Origin: Amoebophrya sp. A120
Taxonomy: Eukaryota; Protista; Dinoflagellata
Reading direction: 5' to 3'
NCBI GenBank assembly: GCA_905178155.1
Contig: CAJINV010000019.1
Coordinates: 316,475 to 380,474, forward strand
DNA: 64,000 nt
Position numbers and translations under genes: made by a program. The notes under the pieces are model-generated. The model saw only the letters and a list, made by a program, of their open reading frames with translations. It had not been told where the DNA came from and did no database searches. Positions 13,060 to 62,100 of this stretch are shown here, in pieces. Positions within the stretch are counted from its first letter, which is position 1. Every line of letters starts with the position of its first letter.

Positions 13060-16000
13060 CTACATCCACTTGTTATTCAGTGACACGACCCGGCTTTTGC
13101 TTCCGTCCTGCACGGTCGGTACGGACGCTAAATCATGCACCGCCCCCTCCTTCTGCGCCGCGGCCGAACGGCACTCGAGCCGGACCTCCCCCTCGTACAG
13201 CCCTCGTTGCATTTGCTCGATGGTTCTCGTGCCGAGATCTTGCATGCCGTGCTTCACGCCCTGGAGAACGTAGGGAATTAGAGCGGAGACGGAACCCTGT
13301 GGTCAACAAGATGGTATCATTGTAGAAAAGTGCTTCTCGTCTGTACCTAAACCTATGCACCTCACTGCATTGATCAAGCCAAAAGCGTTTAGCCACACAC
13401 GACCAGGCACCGTCACACGATCCATCACAACAGATTCATCTCCGGATTGGCAGGCAAACGGTATTCAAACCGTCCTTCTTGCATCAAAAGATAGTTTGTT
13501 CTATACCTTGTCAATCACTGCTCCGGCGACCCCCGTCCGGACGTATCCTGAGTAAAAACGTACCCACGCCAGAGTTGTAATGCAGATTTGCAAAGACAGG
13601 AAGACTTGTAATGCGCATCCCCATGCGAGCCATTTCCAGTCGTGTTTTGGAATTTGTGATGCTGTGAACAGGATGAGCAGCTGGATTTGTGATGCGGCTG
13701 CACTTGCTAACCTGCACCACACTGCAGAGTGCAACTTGTCATGCGTGACTCACAAAACGGCTAGGTTTGTGTTGCACAATCCCCATCCTGACTCTGATGT
13801 GGGTACGTTTTTACTCAGGATAGGACGGAAGAGGTCGTTAGGTGCATGGAGGTCCTCCTGTGGCCACTCGCTGCGTTTCTACCCGTGCTATCAAAAGGAA
13901 AAATTCCCCCGCCTGGTATCAAAAAGAGGTTTCTGATGCTGGATTTCAGTACACAGACCAGATTTGTCTTGCAGTAGAGGACTGCAGGCATATGCCAAGC
14001 CTGAGCCGCGATGTTTTGGCGTAGGCTCCTAGCATGAAAAACGTCGATGGTGTAGGCCCAATAGCATCACAAACCGCCTGCATGATGCGGCGGATTCTCT
14101 GGATTTGCCTGCATGCAAGACAGACAGGATTTGTGGTCACAAATACGCATCACAGATTTTCAGAAGGATGCGCTTTCAACACGGGGAGGGAGGATTTTTC
14201 CTCACGATATGTGCGGCTGCTTGGGCTCAGGGATCCGGAACCGCCTCCGCCGGCGCTGGAAGCCGTGCCACGAATACCTTGCATACAGAAAGGAAATTAT
14301 ATCGAGCTGGACTACGAGGTGAAGAGAGCATAATCGAGATGAGCATTTCGATATCCGCTTTTCGTCTATCTCTCAACACACCACTTCCTGTTCCTTGTCG
14401 TACCAGGAGAGCGAATAAAATGCGCGAAAAAGTAAGTAAAGTCCCTCAATGTTACTGTATGTGGTATCACCTCGAAACGCCTTCACGCGGAGGCCGTTGT
14501 GGTAGAAATAGTCTCCCGGCGTTTCTTCTGTTCCCGCGAGCATGGATCCGCAAACCACAGCGGCAGCGCCAAGACACAGCGCCTTCATCATTTGCCCACT
14601 GTTACCGACACCGCCATCTGGGAAATTTTTTTTTTGTGAAGAAAAGGAATGCTTCGAATGATAGCAATCAATACACGTAGATAGGTAGCACCACCACGTG
14701 GTCCCAAGAACACCACGCCCTTGTTGCAACAAGTCGCAGGACAATAAAACATCTTCCCTTCTTACCGGCCAAGACCGGCACCCCGTATTTTTCTCTCGCG
14801 TATTTTGCCACCGTATAAACCGCAGTTGCTTGCGGTCTACCCACCGCCGCCACATCGCCGGTCATGGCAACTGAGCCGCTACCCATTCCCACCTTTATGG
14901 CGTCCGCTCCGGCGTCGCAAAGAGCCTGGTTTGGGGCGCGGTTTGGATCATTGTAATTTACTAGCATGGGGATCAGAATTATTGGGGTACGATACTGCAA
15001 GACGCCATTTATCTGCATGGAGAGAAGCGAACACTCATACAAATCTCGTCCGTGCATACCGAATGAAAAAGTGAATGGAGCTGCAACACCTTATATTCAT
15101 ACGGTACCTTAGCCTGTCTGCAACTGACAACGTTTCCGGCGACGACGTCTATGCCTGGAAAAGACTTTTTGATCTTTTTCAGTAAGTCGATCTGCCCCTG
15201 TGAGTCCCCCTGGTCCGAATCCAAACACAAAACATCAACGCCACATTGTACGCATCTCTGTGCCCGGTAAAAAGCGTCTTCGTTTTCGCCGTGGGACAGA
15301 CAGGGTATCGCTGCAGCGACCTGTTTTGAATGAATTTACGTCGAATTTTCAATTCGATTTCCGCATCACAGGTCTTCTGCATCGTGTGGACCACAGTGCT
15401 GACAACGAAGAAGAATCGATTCGGAAGAAATAATCGGAAAAATGCAAACCACACGCGATTAGACATCATGGTCTCCCTGTCTATAAATGTTCGTACCAGC
15501 AGCTGTTTATTCGCGTCTTTACTTGCCAGCGGGTATTCTCGATTGGTTTTCAGGTCTGTCCTTGAAACCAGCGCCACCAAATCGCCCTCCTTGTTGACGA
15601 TGGGCAGCTTGCCCACCTTCGCCTCCTGCAGTTTCTCGTTGGCCTTCTGCAGGGATATTGGTTCTATCCCGGTGATTAAATCCGTGGTCATCACCTCGGA
15701 AAGCTTGGAATTTCTATCTTCCACCAGGTCAATATCCCGGCTGGTGACAATGCCGAGCAGTTTCCCGCCAAACTCGCCCGTGGAGGTGATTGGTGCGGAG
15801 CTGTACCCCCGCTTCTCCTTCATTTTGTCCAGATCGCGAATGGTTTGGTTCGGTGTCATGCACACAGGGTCCATGATGAACCCATTCTCGTACCTTTTCA
15901 CGTCCAAAATCTGTTGCGACTGCGTTTCCACGTCCTGGTTCCCGTGGATGATGCCGATACCGCCCCACAGCGCCATGGCGATGGCCATTTCTGCCTCTGT

Positions 16001-16404
16001 CACGGTGTCCATGGGAGAGGATATGATTGGTGTTTTCACCTCCAAATTTCGCGTGATCCGGGTGGAAAGGTCGACGTTTTCTACCTGAGTAGATGGAGTG
16101 AAACGATTTTTAAGATTAAGTAGCTGAGTTCTACGAAATCGGACAGGAGCGCAGTCGGAGTTGTGCAATCTTACGCAACATCATCAGCGGTCTTTTTGGA
16201 GCAATTCCGGCTTCTGTCGCCGTCAATCTTGCGAAACTCAGTACGAAAAAGAGCCCTATTATTTCTATCTATCATCTTAAGTACCCCGAAGTCAATGTGC
16301 CCGGGCATGAGGATAATGTCGTCATAGGCCAATGCCGACTGTTTCATGGTACTGAAAACCTCATCGGCTGTCCAGCCGTTCGCACCGTTTCCGCGGTCCG
16401 GCAT
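13060..16404 (-). CDS. IMPDH: Inosine-5'-monophosphate dehydrogenase homologue with CBS pair; catalytic Cys replaced by Ala
   Basis: LAYDDIILMPGHIDF, TPIISSPMDTVTE, GGIGIIH, CBS pair (GIVTSRDID, GKLPIVN), DSDQGDS, AGNVV, KVGMGSGS, GRPQATAVY, DGGV, QDLG. GT-AG introns plus 2 TIR elements. Confidence 0.92.
13544..13822. mobile_element. Family B TIR element
   Basis: TSD GGACG/GGACG. Confidence 0.9.
13889..14209. mobile_element. Family D TIR element (TATC....GGAAAAATCCCCCTCCCC)
   Basis: TSD CGTGC/TGTGC. Confidence 0.88.
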
Positions 16405-17686: not shown

Positions 17687-20600
17687 CTAGCTTACCCAGC
17701 TCTGCAAGTAGCTCCGATTTGCCTCCAGCCCCTCCTGCAAGACGTGTTTCTGAAAGGCAGAATCATTGCCCACGACGTGCTTGTAGGCGATGGCCAACGG
17801 CTGACACACGACGAGAATGAATCCCAGCGTTACTTTCGACGTGTCCGTCGCGTCGCGGTCGCAAAACGGGGAAACCTGCGGAAAAAACTCTCGCTGCACG
17901 TCCCCCTGGTTGAAAGTATGGATCGCAAAAGCTAGGGAAGTAGCCCAGGCCCACCTCAAAGTTCAAATGAAATTGACCTATCGTGCGAGCCCGGCGAACT
18001 ACATGACAAATATCAAGCTTTCGATCATCTACGGTGGAAGCACTTCTGTCGTGCAATTGCTATCTGCAGATCATCCTGGAGGTATCTATTCACACCTGTT
18101 TCGCAGCTTTTGCAGTGCATAGAAAAACTCATCATGGAGCTTCTCGCTCCACCGGAGCATCTGCTGCAGCGGCCGGCAGCACCAGGAATAGTCGGCGTGT
18201 CCTGAGTAAAAACGTACCCACGCCAGAGTTGTAATGCAGATTTGCAAAGACAGGAAGACTTGTAATGCGCATCCCCATGAGAGCCATATCCAATCGCGTT
18301 TTGGAATTTGTGATGCTGTGAACAGGATGAGCAGCTGGATTTGTGATGCGGCTGCACTTGCTAGCCTGCACTACACTACAGAGCTCAACTTGTCATGCGT
18401 GACTCACAAAACTCCTAGGTTTGTGTTGCAAAATCCTCATCCTAACTCTGGTGTGGGTACGTTTTTACTCAGGATACGGCGAGCTTCAGTGTCATCGCCA
18501 GCAGCAACGCCACATCTTCGAACGAGGCCAGCGTGTCCATGCCCGCGGCAAGCTTCGTCTTGAACAGGCTCATATGCATTGCAAATATGTCTGGGTCTGG
18601 ATGGATTCAACTTTGTGATGCGAGTTCTACATCATGACGAAATCTGTCATGCATGGTCAGCAAAAGACCCCATTTCCTGTTACAGAAAGGGGGCACTTGT
18701 CATGCGGATTAGGCATTGGGGTACCTGCTCGGAATCTGTGATGCTAGGGCTTGCATGCCAGACGATCTGAGCTAGGCAAAAACTGCATCACAAATGTCTG
18801 CACTCTTCCAGACCCAGACATATTTGCATTTGGTAGCTCACCTCGCGGAAGTGCTGGCTCAAGTCCGTTTTCAAAATCGCGGCGATCAGTAACTTGCGGA
18901 ACGCTTCCTGCATGTCTTTGGGCACGTGCAGGAGAAAGTTCAGCTCCGGGTCGGCTAGGTTGGTAAACGTCAAGGACAACGAGTAGGACTGGTTCACAGC
19001 CTTGTCGTTGTATCGGATGGCGCGCGGGTGCTTCACCTGAATCAGGAAGTCGTTCGACAAGCCGGGGTACTCGAGGTACAGCGTCATGCACCCGAAGAAG
19101 AGCGTGAACATGTGCAGCGGCATATCATAAGGAAAAATCCCCTCTCCCCATATCGAAACGGTATGGCACCGAAAATTTGCGCTGCTGATTTGAGACCACA
19201 AGTAGCCATGTCTGTCTTGCAAGAAGACAAGCGCAGAGGCTTCCTCGCCATTATGGAATCGATTTGGCATGCTGTTGGGCCTAGAGGACAGCCGTTTGCA
19301 ATGCTAAACCACTAGACCCAAACCAACGCCCCTACCTAGGCTGAGGATCTGGCTGCGATGCCTTACTGCAAGACAAATCGGATTTGTGTACGCAAATCCA
19401 GCATCAGAAATTTCGTTTTGATGTGGGGAGGGGGGATTTTTCATGTTGATACGGCATCAGGTTCGGGTTTTGCTGCAGCAGCCCGTGCTGCAGAAAGTAG
19501 TGCACCGACTGCGCCATGTATCGCAAGAAAAAACTGCTTCACTGTGAACTTGTGATGCAGAAAATGGGACACAGAACTCTTTGTCTTGCTACAACTGCAA
19601 GGCATTAGATTTGCAAGCGTGTTTTCCCTTAGGAAGCGCGCATGACAAAGTTTCAGTGTCATGTGTAGCAAACTTCTGATGCAGATCTTGCAAAGTCATC
19701 ACAGTGAAACAGTTTTTTCCTGTGATACCATGTTGCAGGCATGCGCGAACCCGTGGAACGGCACCTGGGCGCGGTGCCGCTCCTGCGCGAAACTGCAGAA
19801 ATTGAACAACAGGTCGAAATCCAAGTTCAAAATGCCCACCAAATCGTAGCAGATCAGCAGTTTGAGGAAAATCACCGGAATGGCGTTCACGTCGCACACC
19901 TCGGCCGCCATCAGCATGTCGCATATTGTGAGGAAAAATCCCCCCTCCCCATACCAAAGTGCGATACTTCAGAAAATTTGTGATGCTGATTGGACGCCAC
20001 AAATCGTCTCTGTATTGCAAGGAGGCAAATCCAAAAGCCCCGCCGTGTTCTGCGGGCAATTTGCAATGCTGTATGACCTACGGAGGACATGCCTGCCTTG
20101 CTAGGCGGCTACGCCAAAACGTCCCTACTCCGGCTGTGAATCTGTCTGCAGTCCTCTACTGCAAGACAAATCCGATTTGTGTACCCAAATCCTGCATCAC
20201 AGATTTCCATTTCGATACGGGGAGAGGATATTTTTTCTTTCGATATCGCACGACCAGTCGTCCATCAGCCGCAACGCGGTTTCGATCTGCTCCTCCTTAT
20301 CAAATGCAAATATGTCCGGGTCTGGAAGATTTGGGGAGTTTGTCATGCAAATTGTACATGGCCTCCGATGCCTGTGATGCATTCTCTAGCATCACAGCTT
20401 TCGCAATAAAGTCAAATATCCTAAACCCTAGACCCATAAAACCCTATCGGCGGACCGGGACGGAAGCAGGACGTAGATCGGAGGGAAGAAGATGTGGCGA
20501 AGGGGCGTAGGGGCCGCCTGATCAGAGAAAAAGCGCAAACCGCATGGTCTGAACCTAAAATTACTATGAGAATGTTCATAACCCGAGAGGATAACGACAA

Positions 20601-23600
20601 CGAAAGTGTCGTGCCCCAACCCAAAAAAAATACTGCTTGGTGCCAGTAGGGCCCGGGGAAAACAAAGAGCAAGCAAGAAGAAGGGAAGGTAAAATCTACT
20701 TTCAAAAAGCGCTAGTATAGCCTTATGCTCTGATCCGTCCGGGCGTGCACTCCCATCTGGTTCTAAAGCTTCAGCAGTGCTGGCATCACAGCTTTCGCAA
20801 TAAAGGTTTGCTCATGCCTATTCTGCATGTGAAATGCTCTCTTTGAGTGGCAACAATCTGAGCGCCTTTTGCCTCTCATGCAATACAGATTTTTGTGTGA
20901 TCGACAGCTAGCATCACAAATCCCATGCTTTCCAGACCCAGACATATTTGCAGTTCATACTCCTCCCCGGCAGACAAATTTGACCGTAAGTACAGCTGTG
21001 AGTGCAGTTGCGCCACAATGTCCTCCTGCGTGGCCTGCTTGCCCCCGGTGTTCACCTCCGAGGGCCGGCGCGCTCGGCTCATGGAGCGGACCGACGTCGT
21101 CATGCCCGCGCCCCCGCCCCGGGTGTAGGACCCGCCCCGCGTGTAGGAGCTCGTCCCCGCCTGGCGGGTGTAGGACCCCCGGGTGTAGCTCCCCCGTATC
21201 AAATGTAAAAATGTCTGGGTCTGGAAGATGGCAACTTGTCATGCTAAATCTGAATCAGGCAAAAAACTGTGTTGCATGATTGCCAAAAGCTGTGCACTTT
21301 TGACCTAATCGAGAGGCAGTTTCTCGTGCAGGATAGGCATTGGAACGAAAGGCTTCGCAGAATCTGTCATGCGATGTCCTACATACCAGACCTCATGGGT
21401 TATGGAAAACCTGCATGACAAACCTTGCACTTTTCCAGACCCAGATGTCTTTGCAATCCATACCCCGCACCCCGCCCCGATTGACCACGGAACCGCGGTT
21501 GGCAAAAGACCTATCAACTGGAAAAATGTCTGGGTCTGGAAGAATGCAACTTGTCATGCTAAATCTGAAGCATGCAAAAATCTGTGTTGCATGATTACCA
21601 AAAGTCGTCCAGTTTTGACCAAGTCGGGAGGGAGTTTCTCATGCAGGATAGGCATGAGAGAGATCGCACAGAATCTGCCATGCTAGGTCCTGCATTCCAG
21701 ACCTCATGGGTCAGGGAAAAGCTGCATGACAAGTCGCGCATTCTTCCAGACCCAGACATTTTTACATTTGATAAGACCCGCGGACCTGCGACTGCGCCAC
21801 GTAGGTGCCCCGTATCAAAATGAAAAATCCCCCCTCCCCATATCAAAAGAGAAATCTGTGATGCGGGATCTGTGTACACAAATCACACTTGTCTTGCAGG
21901 AAAGCACTGCACGCAGATCGCAAGCGTGAGGGGGTGCCTTTTGGTGCAGGAACCTAGCATGGCAGACGTCTGCCCTGTAGGCCTTGCAGCATTACAAAAC
22001 GCCTGCATATCGCGGCGGACTGTCTAGATTTGTCTTCTGGCAAGACAGACAGGATTTGTGGTCACAAATCTGCATCACAAATTTTCGGAAGGACATGTTT
22101 TCAATATGGGGAGGGGGGATTTTTCCTTGCAATACCCCGCACGTTGTCCTCGCCGCTGCCGCCCATGCCGGCGGCCGTCGCCGTCCCGGACGAATTCGCC
22201 GTGCCGTCACCGAGCTGTTGGAGATGATAGGATTCATTCTCGTGTCTTGTTCATAAACGAACCCCGTGCTGAAGCAAGAAAAAAGTTTTGGCTTGTTTAC
22301 GGATTTTATTTGGCAACTGTATGCTCTTCTCCTTCGTTCATCATGAGCAGACAAAACAAAAACGATGCTGAGGATGACGTGATTGGATCTTCTTCTGTTG
22401 AGACCACCACACGATATCGATTTCTATCTCCAAAAACATGCAGTCAACTTACTTGCTGTATCCACGCCGTCATGCTGGCGTCGTTTTTTTCGCTGTCGTT
22501 TTTGCTTTTGCCCTCGTCTTCCGTCGGATCATCGACGGACACCTTGTACAGCTTGTTTTCCAGGATCATGTCCACAATCCATTCGAGGTCCTGCCCCGTC
22601 TGCGCCGGAATCTTCAGGTTCTGCAGCTTCTCCAAAAGCTCTAGCACCCGCTCCACGTGCGATTTCGCCCCGTCCGCGAGCGTTTTGGTGACTTTCTTCA
22701 GCTTCCGCCGCGAATCGGAGATCATCACCATCACGCGCACCAGACGGAGCAGCCGGAGCAGCCCCAATATGAAATGCAAAGCGAAAGCACTCGTATAAAT
22801 GTATTACAAATTTCCTCAGCATGAGAAATGAAATTTGTACTGCTAATTTGCCGTAAGAGCAGGATTTGTAATGCATGTATGATTACAATACGAGTGCGAT
22901 ACTTTTGCACAGGATACCCAACCCCGTGGTACCAACGGTGGACCCGAGAAACACGAACCAACAGATGAAGGAGACCAGCACGATGACGGAGTCGAAGAAA
23001 TTCCAGGGGTCCAGGATGAAAGGCAAAAATCCCCCCTCCCCATATCGAGACGAAGTTTCTGATGCTGGAATTCCGTACACAAATGCGCGCTGTCTTGCAG
23101 TACGGCATCACTGCCGGATCCTCAGCCTAGGTAGGGGCGTTTGTCTAGTTGTTTAGCATTACAAACGGCTACCCTCTAGGCCCAACAGCATGACAAATCC
23201 CTCCGCAAATGGCACGGAAGCCCCTGCGCTTGTCTTCTTGCAAGACAAATCTGATTTGTGGCCACAAATCAGCAACACAAATTTTCGGAGACATACCGTT
23301 TCGATATGGGGAGGGGGAGTTTTTCCTCATGATATCCAGGATGAAAGTGGTTCCGTACCCGAAGAGCTTCAGCGCGATCTCCAGCACGAAGAGGAGCATG
23401 ATGCAGAAGTCCAGGTATGTGAAGGCGTAGTACAGCGACAATCGCCCCTGTTCAGACAGCCCCGGACACAAGGAGGAGGTTTTGCACTCATTCGGTTCGT
23501 CCGAAAGCTTCCAGCAGTCGGAGATAACGATGGACAGCATGAGGAACGACGCGTAGAAGCCGACGAGACTGTTGAGGTAGTTAAGTCCTTGACAAATTTC

Positions 23601-26600
23601 AGAAACTTTTATCGATGTTGAAGAGAACGCGCACAATTATCTCCTTGTGATTCTTGATGTGGTAGCAGCATGAAATTGAAAAGAGCAAAAGGGTTCGGTG
23701 GATAAGAGAGTACGAAAACGACGACTTAAGATCTTCTACTCAATACCCGATGATAAACACCAGCACCGTGCGCTTTTCCAGAAACTCCCGCGTTCTGCGC
23801 TGCATTTCGTCTAGAAGCGATTCCTGCAACTCCCTATTGAGAAGAAAAATCCCCCCTCCCCATATCGAAAAAGTATCTTTCCGAAAATTTGCATTGCTGA
23901 TTTGAGGTCACAAATCACATTTGTCTTGTAAGAAGACAAAGGTAGAAGCTTCCGCCCCATTATGGAAGCGATTTGTCATGCTGTTGGGCCTAAAGGTCAG
24001 CCGTTTGCAATGCTGAACAACTAGACCCATACGCCACTCGCCAGCCTCGGGATCTGGTCGCAATGCCTTCCTGCAATACGAATCTGATTTGTGTACGCAA
24101 ATCCAGCATCACAGATTTCCTTTTTGATATGGGGAGGGGGGATTTTTCCTTTTCACACTCCCACTGCAGCAGATACTCCTCGTTGTACTCCTGGATTCCG
24201 GGCTGCACCCGGCCGCACTATCAAGTGCAAAAGTGTCTGGGTCTGGAAGAGTGCAGACTTGTCATGCATATTTTCCATGCCTCATGAGGTCTGGAATGCA
24301 GGACCTAGCATGACAGATTCTGCGAAGTCTCTACCATGCCTATCCTGCATGAGAAACTCCCGCTCATGTTGGTCAAATATAAAAGGACAACTGTTGGCGA
24401 TCACGCAACACAGATTTTTGTGTGACCCACAGGACGCATCACAAGTTCCATCCTTCCAGACCCAGACATATTTGCACTTCATACACACCGGCGAATGACC
24501 AAATACCAGATCACCGGTTGAATCAGCAGATTCTTCACCTGGTCGAAGAAGAAGACCAGTTATGCTGTGCAAAACCAAAAGCACTCGTATGGCAATCATG
24601 CATTACAAATCTCTTTCTTAAGGTAAATCCGCATCACAAATATCATTTCTCATGCTGAGGACATTTGTAATGCATTTATACGAGTACGATACTTTTGCAA
24701 TGCATACCAGTGCGAACGTAACCATGATCTGCTCCACCTTGTCCATCCGTGACGCCTGGTGAAATATGGATGTGTCAGAGTTGAAATCGACAAAGTTCTT
24801 GAAATAATTTGTCATGCATAAAATGGATGCCGGTTGGAACCCAGTTTCCAAGTGGCGCAAGACAAACTTCGGTGGTCCCCAAGTCCTGTTTGTCATGCTG
24901 TTTAGGCAAAGAAGAGCGATTTTCTCATGCTACTTTAGCAGCTCGAGCTGTAACCCCAAACGGGCCTACAATCGGCCTCACTTGCCTGCTCTGCAACACA
25001 CGCGCCTCGGGTCATGCATTTTATGCGCTACAAATTATTTCAACTTTGACGATTTCAAACCTGACGCTTCCATATGAAAGGGCCCCAGCATGGTGACGAA
25101 CAGGATGGAGTGCGTGAAAATGACGAAGAATTGGGAAAAGCACTTGCGGTAGGCCTCCTGGAAATCGTACGACTCGTCCAGCACCGACATGTAGAGAAAA
25201 AGGTTCTCGTAAAAAAACTGCAGCGTGTTTGCGACCAGAATGGCTATGAACTGCAAAAGTGTCTGGGTCTGGAAGAATGCAAACTTGTGATGCTGTCTTT
25301 GGATTCTAAAAAGTTCTGTATTGCAACATGACCAGCAAGAGGAGTCCATTTTGCGCTATCCGGGAAGGGCATTTCTCATGCGGAATACGAATCAGGAAGC
25401 CCAATGAATAAAAATCTGTCATGCTAGGTCATGCATTACAGGCATCAGGGGTCATGCAGTGTGTGCACAACAAACCTCTCACTCTTCCAGACCCAGACAT
25501 TTTTGCATTTCATAATGGCCAGAAGGATACCACCGACGGAGATGCACCAGTTTATCCTGAGTAAAAACGTACCCACACCAGAGTCAAGATGGCAAATCTG
25601 CTAGACAAATCAGCCAGCTTTGGTCGTTTGGCATGACAAGTTCGTCTTCGTAGTGTAATCCTGTTTAGGTAGTTCAGCAGCATCACAGATCTAGTATATC
25701 ATGCTGATTGTAGCATCACAAATTCCAAAACACGACTAGACAATGCCTCTCATGGCGCTCCGCATGACAAACCTTTTTGGCATGCAGATTTGCATGACAA
25801 CTCTGGTGTGGGGACGTTTTTACTCAGGATACAGTTGGTCGTAGAATTGTCGGCGAGCTCCTTTTCGAAGCAAAAAGTCCCGAACAAACCGTAGTAGTTT
25901 TCGTACTCATTCTATCGCAAGAAAAAAACATTGTTAGTGTAACTTTGTGATGCGCAACATGCAAAGTGATTGCGGCTGTCATCCTGGGCATGCATTAAAA
26001 GTTCCACCTAAGCGCGTTTTCACGTACCATCTGCGCATGACAGGTTTTTGCTCTCCAGACAGATTTGTCATGCTGTTCCTCCGAAAAAGTTGCACCTACA
26101 ATCTTTTTTCCTGCGATACGCTCGTGGAATAGGGCAGGCACAGCAGCGACTGGTTTGCCTGCTCCACGGAGCTGCAGGCCGGCCGCGTGTCGGTGTTCGA
26201 AGATTCTGCGCTGGACGCGGTGCTGGAAAGGAGCCGATTATTTCCACCGCCCATGAAGCTATTTTTCAGTAACTGCTTGAATGTTGATCCAGGAACTGCA
26301 TCTTCGGGATGAAAGGTGTTGATTTCCTCCCCAGGTTCAGCAATCTCGCCTTCTTCGTCTTGGAGCTGCAGCCGCCGCCCCAGTCTCATGGTCTCCGCAG
26401 TGCTGTCGAAGGAATCATGCGGATTAGGCGCCTCGTGCTGCCGCAGAGGACCTGCGGGTTGCTCATGCTCTCCCCCAACTACGACATCTTTCGCGTCTCC
26501 TACTCCAAAATCCCCATGGGGACGACTACGCGGTTCGCGCCCGACATAAAACAGCGAGTGAAAAGAGTTTTCCACGAATGTACCCGCGGACGAGAGGTGG

Positions 26601-29497
26601 ACTCTGTTCCAGAAATAAGTAGTCTTCTCGCTGCGACGAGCCTCTTCCTCCATCCGCTTCAACTGTCGTGCGGTCTCGACGGCAGAGACGATGGTCATGG
26701 AGGTTAACGCCGACGGACGTCGTGCTGCTGTATCTTCCAGGTGGTGGTGTTCTTGTAGTTGCACTAACCTCCTAGTTGTATGATCAATACGCTCTTGATG
26801 TTGAAACAGCAGGTTGTCTGCTAGTTCACGTGGTCTGTTCCCGCTGCGCCCTTCTTTGTTCGGTTTCGCAGCAGTGTTGATGTCCAGCGACAGTCCGTAG
26901 TCCGAATCTTCATCCGTCTCGTCTGTCGCCTCCTCTTCCTCGCCCTCCTCCTCTACAAGTACCGCTTCCTCGTCTTCAAGCCGTCTCCTGTCGCTAATCT
27001 GCACGGTGCTGCTGTCGAGTAGGGACTTCTGAAATTTCCGCCCGTCCTTGCACTCGAAGGTCTCGTACGAAGTCGTGCTGTTGGCGCCGCCGGTGCCGGA
27101 TCCACGGGTATGAAACAGTTAGAAACGAATATCATGCCAGCCGCGCCGCCCCCTATATTTAGAGGCAAGAACGTCAGATGAGCGCAGCAGAGAGAGCTGC
27201 AGTTGGAGTTGTGCCTAGGAACAAAGACAATTTAGCGCAAACTTTTGCGGAGTGCTGCCTAGGACAAAGACAAAGCCTTGGCACCAGCGGGGGCACACCA
27301 TCAAGATGCTCTCAACATTTCATACGAAGACAGCAGCGCGGCCTGGTCTGCGAGGTGAGCGCTGAGGACTGCCTCCGTGATTTTGCACCCCGAGAAGCAG
27401 ACGACTACCCGTTCGCACTATCGAATGCAAATATGTCTGGCTCTGGAAGGTTGCCAGGTTTGTCATGCATAGTTTGCATGGCCCATGATTGTCTGTGATG
27501 TGTGCCCTAGCATCACAGATTTTTAGAACCCTTCCTGATGCCTATTCCGCATAAGAAATAACTTCCACCTTCCCGCGTAGAACAAACTGGAATCCTGTTG
27601 CTGCTGGTCATGCAATACAGCTTTTTTTTGAATCCTGAGACAGCATCACAAGTTGCAACCTTCCAGACATCCAGGGATTATACTTGCAATGCATATGCAC
27701 TTTCCGTCCGCGATCTCGCGCCGGTTGTCCGTGCACTGGTTGTAGACCAAGGGTTCCCGTTATGCAAGAAAAAATGTGTGTAAGTGTCGATTTGTGTTGC
27801 AGAACATGCAACAAAGTAATACGCCTGTCATGCCAGACAGCCACGAAGTCCTCTTTTCATGTGTGTTTTCCCTTACAAGTTACGCATGACAGGTTTTGTC
27901 TGTCATGTAGAGCAAATTTGTGATGCTGTTCCTCAAAGAAAGTTTACACTTACACACTTTGCTCCTGGATACCCGTTCCTTGTAGGACAAACACTTCTGG
28001 AAATCCCCGAGCTCCGACGAATATCCTGTGCAAAAGTCTCGTACTCGTATAAATGCAAGTCTTGCATTACAGATCTTTTTCTTAAAGTGAATCAACATTA
28101 CAAATTTTATTTCTCATGCTGAGAAAATTTGTATATGCATTTATACGAGTGCGATACTTTTGCAGTTCATAACGAAAAGCGGCGCTGCAGCGACGTGGTT
28201 GCCGCCGATTGCGCCGCGGGGGTGTAGTAGGTCCCGGTGACCGCGGAGCGGGCGGCGCTGGTGTTCACGGCGTAAAGACTGCTAGAAAAGTATCCTGTGT
28301 AAAAACGTCCCCACGCCAGAGTTGTCATGCAAAAGCGCAATGACAGGAACATTTCTAATGCGCATCTCCATGAGAGGCATTTCTAGTCATGTTCTGGCGT
28401 TTGTAATGCTGTAAACAGGATGAGAAAGTGGCTTTCTCATGCGCCTTCCCTTGCTAACCACCACTACATTGCAGATGGAAAGAACTTGGCATGCACACCT
28501 CCCAAAACTTGACGCTTTGTGTTGCAGATTTACCAACTTGACTATCGCGTGGGGACGTTTTTGCTCAGGATAAAAAGTGGTCCGTCGTGGTCGCCGGGAG
28601 GCTGTAGTTGAAAAATGAGGTGTACGTGTTGCCCTGGTAATGAACCACCGCCAGGCATCATGAGTAAAAATGTCCCCACACCAGAGTTGTCATGCAAATC
28701 TGCATGCGAAAAAAGTTTCTCATGCGGAGCCCAATAAGAGCCATTTTCTTATCCTGATGCTTTGGAATTTGTAATGCTAGAATCAGCATGATATGCTAGA
28801 TCTGTGATGCTTCGGAACTAGCTAAACAGGATTACACTACGAGGATAAATTCGTCATGCGAAACCACCAGAGGTGGCGGATTTGTCTAGCGGATTCCCCA
28901 TCTTGACTCTACTGGGGTGGGGACGTTTTTGCTCAGGATACCAGGTCCGACCGCACCTCGCAGGCACTGTTGTCGGGAAAACTGGCTAACAGGCAGTTAC
29001 GGTGGCAGGTGTCGCGCCGGAGAATTTTTTGTTCCACCTCCCCCATGCCGTACATACCTGCGAATGCGGAGCACACCAGCAAGACCAGCAGGTACGACAA
29101 CAGCCGCAACAGTCGGTGCTTCCAACTCAGCGCCTGCCACTCGGGGAGCTGGGTCTCGGGGTAGTAGGATTTCAGCAGAATGTATCCAGGAAAAAAACTG
29201 TGTAAGTGCAAGAACTTCGTAGGAAGAACAGCATCACAAATTTGTTTTGCATTACAGGGAAAAGAACCTGTCGTGCGCAGCTAGTAATAGTATCAGTGGA
29301 AACCCGTATGAAAGTTGCCTATGACGTCGCACATACAGCACGACAAGCGTTCACAGTTTTGCATTTCCTGCATCACAGACTTACACTTACACAGTTTTTT
29401 TCTTGCATAAAATGTTGTTTTGCCACATGTGGTTCTTCAGCGTCGCCACGCGAATGTGCCCCTCCGGGGAGAGGCACATGAAAAACCAGAACGCCAT
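17687..29497 (-). CDS. Multi-pass membrane protein: voltage-sensor (S1-S4) domain fused to a degenerate class I cyclic-nucleotide phosphodiesterase domain; 25 TIR elements
   Basis: Reassembled frame gives FVLEIALKLFGYG / PWNFFDSVIV / LGLLRLLRLVRV (VSD), then FHGFAHA, YPGLSNDFLI, RYND, ILKTDLSQHF, LADYS, EFFNQGD, SPFCDR, GFI (PDEase_I). The junction at ~27000-27400 is unresolved, so the 5'-most exons may be a separate gene. Confidence 0.8.
17917..18121. mobile_element. Singleton (M), diverged TIR element
   Basis: TIR TATGGATCGCAAAAGCT / TATGCACTGCAAAAGCT; TSD GAAAG/GAAAA; restores EFF|NQGD. Confidence 0.85.
18198..18476. mobile_element. Family B TIR element
   Basis: TSD CGGCG/CGGCG; left end TGT. 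Confidence 0.9.
18573..18835. mobile_element. Family A TIR element
   Basis: TSD GCTCA/GCTCA; right end GTA. Confidence 0.9.
19123..19451. mobile_element. Family D TIR element
   Basis: TSD CGGCA/CGGCA. Confidence 0.9.
19519..19727. mobile_element. Family I TIR element (TATCGCAAGAAAAAACTGYTTCACTGTG)
   Basis: TSD CCATG/CCATG. Confidence 0.9.
19924..20245. mobile_element. Family D TIR element
   Basis: TSD TCGCA/TCGCA. Confidence 0.9.
20298..20959. mobile_element. Family A TIR element carrying a nested insertion
   Basis: TSD CTCCT/CTCCT. Confidence 0.9.
20412..20782. mobile_element. Nested 371-bp insertion with 23-bp direct repeats and a telomere-like end
   Basis: GCATCACAGCTTTCGCAATAAAG at 20389-20411 and 20783-20805; CCTAAACCCTAGACCCATAAAACCCTA near the left end. 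Confidence 0.8.
21197..21462. mobile_element. Family A TIR element
   Basis: TSD CCCCG/CCCCG. Confidence 0.9.
21512..21773. mobile_element. Family A TIR element
   Basis: TSD AGACC/AGACC. Confidence 0.9.
21813..22134. mobile_element. Family D TIR element
   Basis: TSD CCCCG/CCCCG. Confidence 0.9.
22768..22916. mobile_element. Family H TIR element (TATCCTGTGCAAAAGTATCGCACTCGTA)
   Basis: TSD CCCAA/CCCAA. Confidence 0.9.
23015..23334. mobile_element. Family D TIR element
   Basis: TSD TCCAG/TCCAG; left end GAT. Confidence 0.88.
23835..24157. mobile_element. Family D TIR element
   Basis: TSD CTCCC/CTCCC; right end ACA. Confidence 0.88.
24219..24483. mobile_element. Family A TIR element
   Basis: TSD CGCAC/CACAC. 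Confidence 0.88.
24561..24706. mobile_element. Family H TIR element
   Basis: TSD CCAGT/CCAGT. Confidence 0.9.
24765..25074. mobile_element. Family C TIR element (opposite orientation to 311-626)
   Basis: TSD TGAAA/TGAAA. Confidence 0.9.
25245..25514. mobile_element. Family A TIR element
   Basis: TSD ATGGC/ATGGC. Confidence 0.9.
25553..25831. mobile_element. Family B TIR element
   Basis: TSD CAGTT/CAGTT. Confidence 0.9.
25913..26118. mobile_element. Family K TIR element (TATC..AAGAAAAAAAC..TGTTAGTGTAA)
   Basis: TSD CATTC/CGCTC; frame restored. Confidence 0.85.
27419..27695. mobile_element. Family A TIR element (diverged right TIR)
   Basis: TSD CGCAC/TGCAC. Confidence 0.85.
27761..27971. 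mobile_element. Family J TIR element (TATGCAAGAAAAAA..TGTGTAAGTG)
   Basis: TSD CCCGT/CCCGT. Confidence 0.9.
28022..28171. mobile_element. Family H TIR element
   Basis: TSD ACGAA/ACGAA. Confidence 0.9.
28291..28572. mobile_element. Family B TIR element
   Basis: TSD AAAAG/AAAAG. Confidence 0.9.
28656..28940. mobile_element. Family B TIR element
   Basis: TSD CCAGG/CCAGG; left end CAT. Confidence 0.88.
29183..29409. mobile_element. Family J TIR element
   Basis: TSD GAATG/AAATG. Confidence 0.88.
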
Positions 29498-59100: not shown

Positions 59101-62100
59101 CCGAAATTTGTATTGCAGAAAGTGGAACGCTCTGCGAGTCTGTCATGCTCATCATGCAACACAAATTCTAGATTTTATTGTACCGTTTGAGATTGTAACT
59201 TTTGAGCAGGTCATATCTGTCGCCGTGGCGCCGCTGCTCGTCCCGCCGGACTGCGCAATACCGGTGGAGATGATCTCTGTCGTCGTGCTGCTGGTCCACT
59301 TGGACAGGCAGTCGCAGAGCAGATCCGTGATCTCATTCACGTTCCCGCGGTAGCCGTATCAAATGCAAGTAAGTCTGGGTCTGGAAGAACAATGTCATGC
59401 AGATTTTGTATGACGCATGATGTCTGTGATGCATGCCGTAGACTTTCTGATGCCCTTACCGCATGAGAAATGCCCTCTCCGCGTATCAAAAAGCTGGACC
59501 TTTTTTGCTGTTCATCATGCAATACAGATTTTATGTCGAGTCCAAAGGTAGCATCACAGGTTGCATCTTTCCAGACCCAGACATATTTGCAGTCCATAAG
59601 CCGTCCAACGTACACAAAGACCCGTACTCGCCGAGCACCCACGCGATCACCTGGATCAACACGTCGGGGAAGCGGGACCCCTTGTCCGTCCCATTGCCGT
59701 ACTTCTCCAGCAGTTTCACAAACGTGTTGACCGTGTACACCCGGAATTTTTCGTCCTCTTCGTCCGACGTGCCCGTGCCCTCGGCGACGAAACGCATATC
59801 AAATGTAAAAGTGTCTGGGTCTGGAAGATTGCCAGGTTTGTCATGCACATTTTGCCTGACTCCTGATGTCTGTGATGCATGCCCTAGCATCACAGATTTT
59901 GTGCGGGCTTCCTGATGCCTATACCGCATGACAAATGCTCTTTCCGTGTAGCAAAACTTGGGCTCTCTTTGCTGCTCATGCGATACAGTTTTTTTTCGAA
60001 TCCAAAATCAGCATGACAGGTTGGATTCTTCCAGACCCAGACATTTTTACACTTGATAGCGCATCAGATTGTGCGACACGGTTTGCGGCAGCAAGTCGCC
60101 CCCCAGCTGGAACACGTTGTATCAATTGCAAATATGTCTGGGTCTGGGAAATTCTGAGATGACTTGTCATGCACGTTTTACATGAGCCATGATGTCTGTG
60201 ATGCATGTCCTAGCGTCGCAGATTTTTTGAGGGCTTCTTGATGCCTAGTCCGCATGACAAATGCCCTGCTCTCCGCGTAGCAAAAATTGCGTTCTCTTTG
60301 CTGCTCATGCAATACAGATTTTTTTGGAATCTAAAGGCAGCGTCACAAGTTGCATTTCTCCAGACCCAGACATCTTTGCATTTGATACGTTGGTCATGGT
60401 GTCCAAATACCAGTCGTTGGACGGCGCGTACCGCTCGGCGAGTATCGCAAGGAAAAACTGTTTCACTGTGGACTTGTGATGCAGAAAGTGTATCGCAGAC
60501 GTCTTTGTCTTGCTACATATGCAAGAAAGTGCGTTTTTAGGCGTGTCTTTCCTTGGGTGGCTCGCATGGCAAACTTCCTTTGTGATGCAAAGCAAACTTG
60601 TGATGCAGAAGTTGCAAAATCATCACAGTGAAGCAGTTTTTTCGTGGGATAGCGAGGGTGCAAATCCTACTCGTGAGCTCCTTGCGCAGGTGGTTGTCCT
60701 GGGTGGTTTGCAGGTGGAAAAGAAGCTTCTCGGCTATCCTGTGCAAAAGTATCGCACTCGTAGTAATTGCAATCATGCATCACAAATTTTTTTCTCAAGG
60801 TAAATCCGCATCACAGATTTTATTTCTCATGCTGAGAAAGTTTGTAATGCATTTATACGAGTACGATTATACTTTTGCAATTTATATCGGCGACGACCGT
60901 GCAATTCTGCGGGTTCGTCATCTTATACCTGACAGTGTATGGGGGCGGTCGTACCTTTTGTTCTTCATGTCTTGTCATGCGAAGGTCATGTGATGAGAAG
61001 AACTCTGTGTCATGATACGCATGGACGAAAACCTCTTGATAGCATATTATACAGCAAATCCAGCGTCTTTCGCTTGAGCGTTTCATCCGGATCCTCCAGG
61101 CAATCTACTACGACCATCTGATGCTCAGCAGCGTATTTCGGATTCATCTGCACAATCGCTGCGAGGCCGGTGACGCCCAGGTACCTTGATTTGTGGTAGA
61201 TGATGAGTGAAGTTTGATGCCAACATTCATCACACGCGCGACGACTATGATGTACGTACTTATCCTTTCCTATGATGTACGTACTTATGTATCAACTTGC
61301 CCGGCGGCTTCATCGCGACGTTGTCATAACAAACAAGTAGAGAGAAAACAGAAGACAGAAGCATGCCATCCATCATCAGCAATACAAGTTTTCACTTTCA
61401 GTATAAAGTACTTCAAATTGTGGTTGTCACTGGAGATGAAGCGCGAGATGGACTGCGCGGCCTGCTCCAACAGGGGCGGATGCGGGTAGATTTTGGTGAT
61501 GGTGTTGACGCACTCGTACAAAATCGCGTAACCGACGTTGACGCCCATGTCGGATTTCTTCATCATTTCCCCCAAAAGCGGGTACATCAACTCGCTGGCC
61601 TTGGGGTCCGCGTGCCCCAGCGTGCCCAGGATGGACAATAGCTTGATCTGGATCCAGGGGGCCGGCACCCGGTGGTAGTCGAATTCCCGCGGCAGCCGGT
61701 GGTCGATGATTTGCTTCAGGATGGACAAAAAGCTCGGCACCAGGTCCTTGTTCGCGATCGTGTTCTGCTTGGCCAAGTCGTGGAGCATGTACAGACTGGC
61801 ACCCATCACAGACGGGTCCTGGTCGCAGAGAACCTGGGGATGGGGGAGAAGTTATTTTTGTGTTTACTGGCGGCAGGGATTTGTTCTTCTTCTTTCATAA
61901 TTTACTTCGCATAGCGATCACAAATAATATCATGTTGTTGATCTGCAGTAGGAGCGAAGACATGATTTGCCATGCATGTATCATATACCTTCCTGACATT
62001 GTCGTTACAGCTGGTTGCAATGTTGCTGTCGAGCTTGTAAATTTTGTGCAGAGCCTATCCAAGAAAAAAAGTGTGTCAGTGTAACTTTCTTTGGCCGACA

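Follow-up and report, generated by a model that had tools for sequence, protein, structure and literature searches.

A 64,000-nucleotide (nt) stretch of Amoebophrya sp. A120 contig CAJINV010000019.1 (the window) carries on its minus strand, at 29497-17687, a gene whose product joins a pore-less voltage-sensor domain (VSD, helices S1-S4) to a degenerate class I phosphodiesterase (PDE) fold that is likely inactive. The order of the parts is a transmembrane helix, a Cys-containing loop, three transmembrane helices, S1-S4, a helical linker and the PDE fold. The gene is a member of the family of Toxoplasma PDE4 (TgPDE4) rather than a new kind. We tentatively propose, with a chance that we put slightly short of even, that its product acts as a voltage-coupled regulatory subunit of an intact sister VSD-PDE in the same organism. 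The parts of the protein map to the window as follows.

29056..29112, minus strand: first predicted transmembrane helix (amino acids (aa) 52-70), by hydropathy
25548..29055, minus strand: large Cys-containing loop, by translation; the Cys-rich loop of the relatives is shorter
24484..25547, minus strand: three further transmembrane helices (aa ~594-690), by hydropathy and as three long helices in both AlphaFold models
22717..23769, minus strand: voltage-sensor domain S1-S4, without S5-pore-S6, by Pfam, 3WKV and 4G7V matches
22453..22668, minus strand: helical hairpin and short helix after S4, conserved in nearly all VSD-bearing rows and helical in the model
20960..22214, minus strand: Gly/Ser/Arg-rich low-complexity linker, exons 19-22, by translation
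17690..20292, minus strand: degenerate class I PDE domain, by Pfam PDEase_I (E 3.7e-51) and alignment to solved PDEs
19076..19081, minus strand: Leu and Tyr codons in place of the His-Asp metal pair (His200, Asp201), by translation and alignment

The coding sequence is broken every 35-300 nt by elements of 150-670 nt that end in inverted repeats and lie between 5-nt direct repeats. The frame was rebuilt by excising each TA...TA inverted-repeat element with one copy of its 5-nt direct repeat, and by excising likewise two ordinary GT-AG introns. Excision yielded a single open frame of ~1,410 codons (G+C at third codon positions, GC3, 0.78), from an ATG at 29497 to a stop at 17687, in 29 exons and 28 introns. 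The preliminary description, drawn from the sequence before this analysis, had placed the gene at 17687..23830 with 25 inserts; it starts ~5.7 kb farther upstream, and the introns are 26 of introner type (150-670 nt, several families) and two GT-AG introns. At least 19 of the 28 introns were skipped exactly in contigs from runs X1-X4, which are of transcript type (presumed RNA, though none of those listed is recorded as such; one sample of one study); these include at least 17 of the 26 introner-type introns and both GT-AG introns. A twentieth joint (24705-24555) was deduced from the length of one contig, and within the extent first proposed at least 13 of 14 introns had contig joints. The single frame and the contigs that skip the same stretches argue that the gene structure is not due to chance.

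The end of one GT-AG intron at 23569 was fixed by the ortholog of strain A25 and by contigs, and the intron near 26119 measured 211 nt by contigs. The seven most upstream introns were placed by the element rule and by N-terminal homology to full-length relatives; the N-terminus matches relatives such as P0007, P0008 and P0023. For the intron at the sensor-PDE junction (21462-21192) no bridging piece was found among the contig pieces listed; the linker there is repeat-rich, and in run X1 one contig stopped at 21120 and another near 21485, both inside it. Raw-read runs X8 and X9 matched the repeat elements only, not the exons. Amoebophrya introners have been described with border inverted repeats, short direct repeats and non-canonical splice sites (PMC7789003). 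The elements of this gene match that description in their inverted and direct repeats and in their removal from presumed transcripts, and the gene, with 26 of them, adds nothing new in this respect.

17912..29410, minus strand: introner-type and GT-AG introns, by repeat structure and contig joints
23746-23569 and 22452-22215, minus strand: GT-AG introns, both with contig joints
29497-29411, 29178-28941, 28650-28573, 28285-28172, 28016-27972, 27755-27697, 27414-27325 and 27103-26119, minus strand: exons 1-8
25907-25832, 25547-25514, 25238-25075, 24759-24706, 24554-24484, 24213-24157 and 23828-23747, minus strand: exons 9-15
23568-23335, 23009-22917, 22762-22453, 22214-22135, 21807-21773, 21505-21463 and 21191-20960, minus strand: exons 16-22
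20292-20246, 19918-19728, 19513-19452, 19117-18836, 18567-18477, 18192-18122 and 17911-17687, minus strand: exons 23-29

The introner at 20293-20959 exceeds its family (~270 nt) by ~400 nt. Nested within it, near 20400-20805, is an insert whose border is repeated; short telomere-like units occur near 20420-20445. A contig joint at 20399/20804 is what family copies lacking the insert would give. In the intron at 27104-27324 the direct repeats match poorly. This intron was read through in one X1 contig, and an X3 contig stopped at 27104 and continued elsewhere, suggesting that it exists in retained and spliced forms.

In the public A120 annotation the gene is split between two models with consecutive gene ids, P0001 (370 aa), identical to its PDE half, and P0005 (633 aa, flagged partial), identical to its membrane half, so that domain surveys of the A120 genome miss the fusion. 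The prediction that gene callers would miss it therefore held for A120, but not for A25, where the ortholog P0003 has Ion_trans and PDEase_I within one model. The fusion is also a single protein in the transcript-derived full-length relatives P0155, P0156, P0161, P0168 and P0170. The consecutive models would also be seen if, as the A120 annotation has it, the sensor protein and a soluble dead PDE came from two genes. We regard this as highly improbable: P0005 carries a partial flag, the A120 frame runs from the membrane half into the PDE half without a stop codon, and one protein holds both halves in the A25 ortholog and in each of the five transcript-derived relatives. The single frame, the A25 model and the full-length relatives thus bear out the fusion proposed in the preliminary description.

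The Pfam Ion_trans match covers positions 6-124 of 241 (E 3.9e-13). This match ends at position 118-124 and a hydrophilic linker comes next, so no pore domain follows S4, as had been claimed. The best fold match was the sensor of Ci-VSP, 4G7V (Z score 13.4, root-mean-square deviation 2.0 Å, 123 residues), tied within 1 Z with several channel sensors; Foldseek matched the Ci-VSP sensor with E 1.2e-3. The ESM Atlas gave only sub-0.9 leads or no match. The motifs named earlier were present after removal of the elements, S2 at 23390-23364, S3 at 23008-22991 and S4, with an Arg at every third residue (i, i+3, i+6), at 22761-22732. Across the family there is hardly any variation at the S2 Phe/Glu, at the S3 Asp or at the first S4 Arg.

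It is conceivable that S1-S4 serves instead as a membrane anchor, a dimerisation module or a sensor of pH, lipid or a loop ligand, with voltage playing a minor part. S4 has only three Arg here and two in coccidia, and is irregular in the relatives P0030 and P0083; the four extra helices and the large outer loop suggest another input. We nevertheless consider this distinctly unlikely, given the near invariance of the S2, S3 and first S4 residues and a closest fold that is the Ci-VSP sensor. Hv1, moreover, senses voltage with three Arg. As in Hv1/VSOP, there are three S4 Arg and only S1-S4, and the best single-domain sequence match of the sensor was an Hv1 chimera (3WKV, E 1.2e-20). An Hv1-like proton channel with a regulatory dead PDE would have these properties, including the lack of a pore domain; however, where Hv1 has its S1 selectivity Asp, this protein has a Tyr, which is kept across the family, and the probability of such a channel is close to negligible. 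In contrast to Hv1, a hairpin and a PDE domain come after the sensor.

The additional transmembrane segments and Cys-rich loop that had been reported upstream correspond to the four helices and the Cys-containing loop listed above. The three helices at aa ~594-690 matched no Pfam family and no known family. A count of eight helices would place both protein ends in the cytosol, and the side of the loop, deduced from this count, would be extracellular or luminal. The long, intron-free exon 26119-27103 encodes an acidic low-complexity insertion in the outer loop, absent from most relatives, for which no Pfam family was found. The fold matches listed, which the sensor domain filled, lent no support to a likeness between the upstream helices and polycystin-1; PKD_channel matches occurred in 8 of 34 and in 1 of 22 members, the matching region not being shown.

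The PDE fold of the A25 ortholog was modelled with a predicted local distance difference test (pLDDT) score mostly >90 and had a Foldseek target template-modelling score of ~0.9 to PDE4 (PDE4D/4B). Residues are given here in PDE4D numbering, with the register confirmed by alignment to solved PDEs. His160 (the general acid), His164 and Asp318 (zinc ligands), Thr271, Phe340 and Phe372 are kept, and the hydrophobic clamp persists as Phe372, Phe340 and a Leu at the Ile336 position. The His-Asp pair is replaced at 19081-19076, the second-metal shell is lost (His204 to Tyr, Glu230 to Gln, His233 to Ser), Asn321 is Trp and the invariant Gln369 is Thr. The preliminary description had the replaced pair exactly, the altered Glu230/His233 motif (18994-18980) and the lost Gln (within 17833-17819); its list was correct as far as it went, and His204 and Asn321 are to be added. 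In class I PDEs the His-Asp pair binds both metals (PMC13095499), so its loss makes catalysis very unlikely, and from these residues the domain is likely inactive. The dead domain is nevertheless 76% identical between A120 and A25, against a reported genome-wide ortholog mean of 48-51% (PMC7789003), which argues for a function without catalysis.

Relatives were taken from the best 150 matches, of which 145 PDE rows were tabulated and treed (P0001, P0007, P0010 and P0015 were left out of the tree as duplicates of other rows). The rows scored as dead in this tree include fragments with missing columns, and P0124 is intact where covered. One group of 22 rows was wholly degenerate (support 99). 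In a tree of 46 full-length rows, computed by quick search with the catalytic columns removed, no bootstrap and a midpoint root, 12 degenerate rows formed one clade with a Shimodaira-Hasegawa-like approximate likelihood ratio test value of 99. It holds both Amoebophrya strains, Oxyrrhis, Rhytidocystis, Cystoisospora, Neospora and transcripts; the coccidian proteins Cystoisospora P0012, Neospora P0162 and Hammondia P0163 group with the protein of the window. These trees indicate that the degenerate clade is old and well supported. Its sister pair, P0013/P0016, keeps the metal site. P0013, P0016 and P0090, noted as a sister group of the dead clade, keep an intact metal site, but in their nucleotide pocket position 321 (Asn in PDE4D) is Lys and position 372 (Phe) is Tyr; they may represent an intermediate state.

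The same upstream helices recur in a second clade, most of whose rows are intact; the A120 paralog P0100 and Oxyrrhis P0186 belong to it. Intact paralogs with the same upstream helices and sensor, found through protein databases, are present in A120 (P0100), in A25 (P0189) and in Oxyrrhis (P0186, beside the dead P0170). In at least 43 of the 145 PDE rows the metal site is intact and a stretch matches the sensor; named holders are Chromera, Oxyrrhis, Amoebophrya and the haptophyte Chrysochromulina, whose protein is compact (681 aa) and intact. Many proteins of 600-800 aa (P0050, P0056, P0075/P0172 and others) consist only of S1-S4, the hairpin and an intact PDE. Some of them have four or more S4 Arg; proteins of this layout are the simplest candidates for a voltage-sensing PDE. 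In Euplotes, PDEase_I and Ion_trans genes are reported to be always adjacent (PMC8670190), and may be split models of the same fusion.

Two other readings concern the pocket of the dead domain. Weak or altered catalysis at a rearranged single-metal site would be in keeping with His160, His164 and an acidic residue at 318, each kept in 12 of 12 rows of the dead clade, and with the His that several members have at the Asp201 position, a possible substitute zinc ligand. Amoebophrya, however, has Tyr at 201 and Leu or Met at 200, its His204, Glu230 and His233 are changed, and both metals depend on the His-Asp pair; we judge residual catalysis very unlikely.

The other is a stand-alone voltage-coupled scaffold or cyclic-nucleotide sensor, in which the dead pocket binds cyclic AMP (cAMP), cyclic GMP (cGMP) or a protein without an intact paralog. 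The strong conservation of the domain, the retained purine clamp (position 372 is Phe or Tyr throughout the 12 dead-clade rows) and an Asp201Asn mutant of PDE4D solved with cAMP bound (PMC13095499) speak for it. Against it, Gln369 has given way to Thr in this protein, with Thr, Asn, Gln or His at that site across the clade, position 321 is Trp or Phe in 12 of 12 rows, which would crowd the purine site, and the phosphate-binding metal site is lost. We consider this reading unlikely, though a serious contender. It is also the function that the preliminary description had assigned to the protein; the union of a pore-less sensor with a degenerate PDE stands, and the cyclic-nucleotide sensor reading is possible but weakened by the loss of Gln369 and by Trp at 321. 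The intact paralog, which that description could not see, suggests a different role, that of a regulatory partner.

In the predicted model S4 continues as a helix into the conserved hairpin and short helix, and the Gly/Ser/Arg-rich linker that follows has pLDDT <50 in the A25 ortholog and is disordered. The family profile runs collinearly into the upstream conserved region 2 (UCR2) of 4WZI and 8YLC, in an alignment anchored by the PDE domain. In long PDE4 forms the UCR2 helix is reported to cap the pocket of the partner, and cross-capping within the dimer regulates the enzyme (PMC6613170). From this alignment, the hairpin and short helix are possibly equivalent to the UCR2 of PDE4.

A regulatory subunit could then work as follows. 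S4 would move with the membrane potential, and the hairpin into which it continues would mediate dimer formation, as UCR1/UCR2 do in long PDE4. If a dead and an intact subunit pair up, the linker helix or the PDE fold of the dead one would cap or release the active site of its partner, so that breakdown of cAMP or cGMP would track voltage. The setting would likely be a motile, flagellated stage, and a further input, from a ligand or by anchoring, may come through the Cys-rich outer loop and the four additional helices.

The regulatory-subunit reading draws on (i) the fusion itself; (ii) the hallmarks of the sensor; (iii) the conservation of the dead domain; (iv) the gathering of dead rows in one clade; (v) the presence of an intact paralog in both Amoebophrya strains and in Oxyrrhis, and of the pair TgPDE4 and its paralog TgPDE16 in Toxoplasma; and (vi) the cross-capping that regulates long PDE4, together with the run of the family profile into UCR2. 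Several points weigh against it. The PDE domain may be what pulls the alignment into UCR2: the linker exon searched by itself found no PDE4 chain, no UCR family was present among the Pfam families listed, and with one intact relative the alignment stopped short of the hairpin region of 4WZI. The likeness to UCR2 is therefore a lead. The coccidian members of the dead clade have only the two S4 Arg mentioned above. Degenerate sites also occur outside the clade (P0030, P0083, P0037), so that decay of these PDEs is recurrent. Co-occurrence of dead and intact forms was drawn from three named genomes or transcriptomes and, from the literature, Toxoplasma. The A120 annotation lists the halves as two genes. 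Finally, Plasmodium makes flagellated gametes. It is nevertheless described as being without this PDE clade (PMC10865986).

Known proteins offer partial precedents. In Ci-VSP, as here, a pore-less S1-S4 lies directly upstream of a cytosolic enzyme domain; that enzyme is a PTEN-like phosphatase, whereas the Amoebophrya protein has a degenerate class I PDE fold and adds four transmembrane helices, an outer Cys-rich loop and the helical hairpin linker. Fusions of a VSD to a nucleotide cyclase, such as the Paramecium and Plasmodium adenylyl cyclases and Phytophthora PPTG_13136, likewise pair a voltage sensor with a cyclic-nucleotide enzyme in flagellated or ciliated protists, and are reported to be located on flagella (PMC12223298, PMC10651576). 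These cyclases make cyclic nucleotides, the ciliate one being described with a K+ pore; in contrast, the VSD-PDE family would remove them, and its intact and dead forms occur in pairs. The class I PDE fold is shared by long-form PDE4 (UCR1/UCR2) and the rod PDE6 heterodimer, which also carry it and give precedents for cross-capping and for a heterodimer (PMC6613170, PMC13095499). They differ in being soluble, with both subunits active, and the linker can be called homologous to UCR2 only tentatively.

The architecture was already on record. The preliminary description had held out the combination of Ion_trans and PDEase_I as potentially novel, but it is in print for TgPDE4 (PMC7720076, PMC8809380), and is found in the single A25 model and in coccidian members of the clade. 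Pfam00520 is recorded in TgPDE4 and TgPDE16 (Vo et al., PMC8809380), and TgPDE4 (TGGT1_229405) is described with an ion-transport domain and many substitutions in its catalytic signature residues (PMC7720076). Like the Amoebophrya protein, it thus has Pfam00520 and PDEase_I in one membrane chain with substituted catalytic residues. In the accounts consulted its domain was called channel-like or ion-transport, and it was predicted to be cAMP-specific, with no function tested. TgPDE4 and TgPDE16 are reported to form a clade with free-living alveolates (PMC10865986) and to be expressed only in cat stages (PMC7720076, PMC10865986). The published description of TgPDE4 agrees with the coccidian members of the degenerate clade and, judged through these relatives, the gene of the window is likely its counterpart. 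The Amoebophrya protein differs from this type in having three S4 Arg, against two in coccidia, in a metal site that is lost more completely and in its long insertion in the loop.

The literature searched for a voltage-sensing or pseudo-PDE reading yielded the Toxoplasma domain notes, the Euplotes synteny remark and unrelated papers. With subscription journals outside its coverage, this search did not find the reading of the PDE as bearing a pore-less voltage sensor, the pairing of dead and intact paralogs, or many intact VSD-PDEs across protists. VSP is the established voltage-controlled enzyme. A review of VSD proteins, in the parts available, calls the protist cyclase not yet functionally proven and mentions no PDE (PMC10651576).

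Elsewhere on the minus strand of the window, the downstream neighbour at ~14300-16400 is an IMP dehydrogenase gene with CBS domains, in the same orientation and probably unrelated, and an exon at 61327-61851 encodes the Adaptin N-terminal domain of an AP-complex large-subunit gene.

In its widest form, which we hold to be doubtful, the proposal is that protists have a so far unrecognised voltage-sensing PDE family, a second class of voltage-controlled enzyme after VSP. The dead subunit would gate its intact twin in trans, as an ancient heterodimer of dinoflagellates and their apicomplexan relatives, and would tie membrane potential to the removal of cAMP or cGMP, both in cells that swim and in sexual Toxoplasma stages. 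The rows in which a sensor stretch accompanies an intact metal site, at least 43 among the 145, are candidate voltage-controlled PDEs, and the 681-aa haptophyte form could be voltage-clamped directly. A voltage-gated PDE, if true, would be useful as a tool, and for the two Toxoplasma PDEs of the cat stages, which are unstudied, the conserved dead/intact pair offers a concrete hypothesis.

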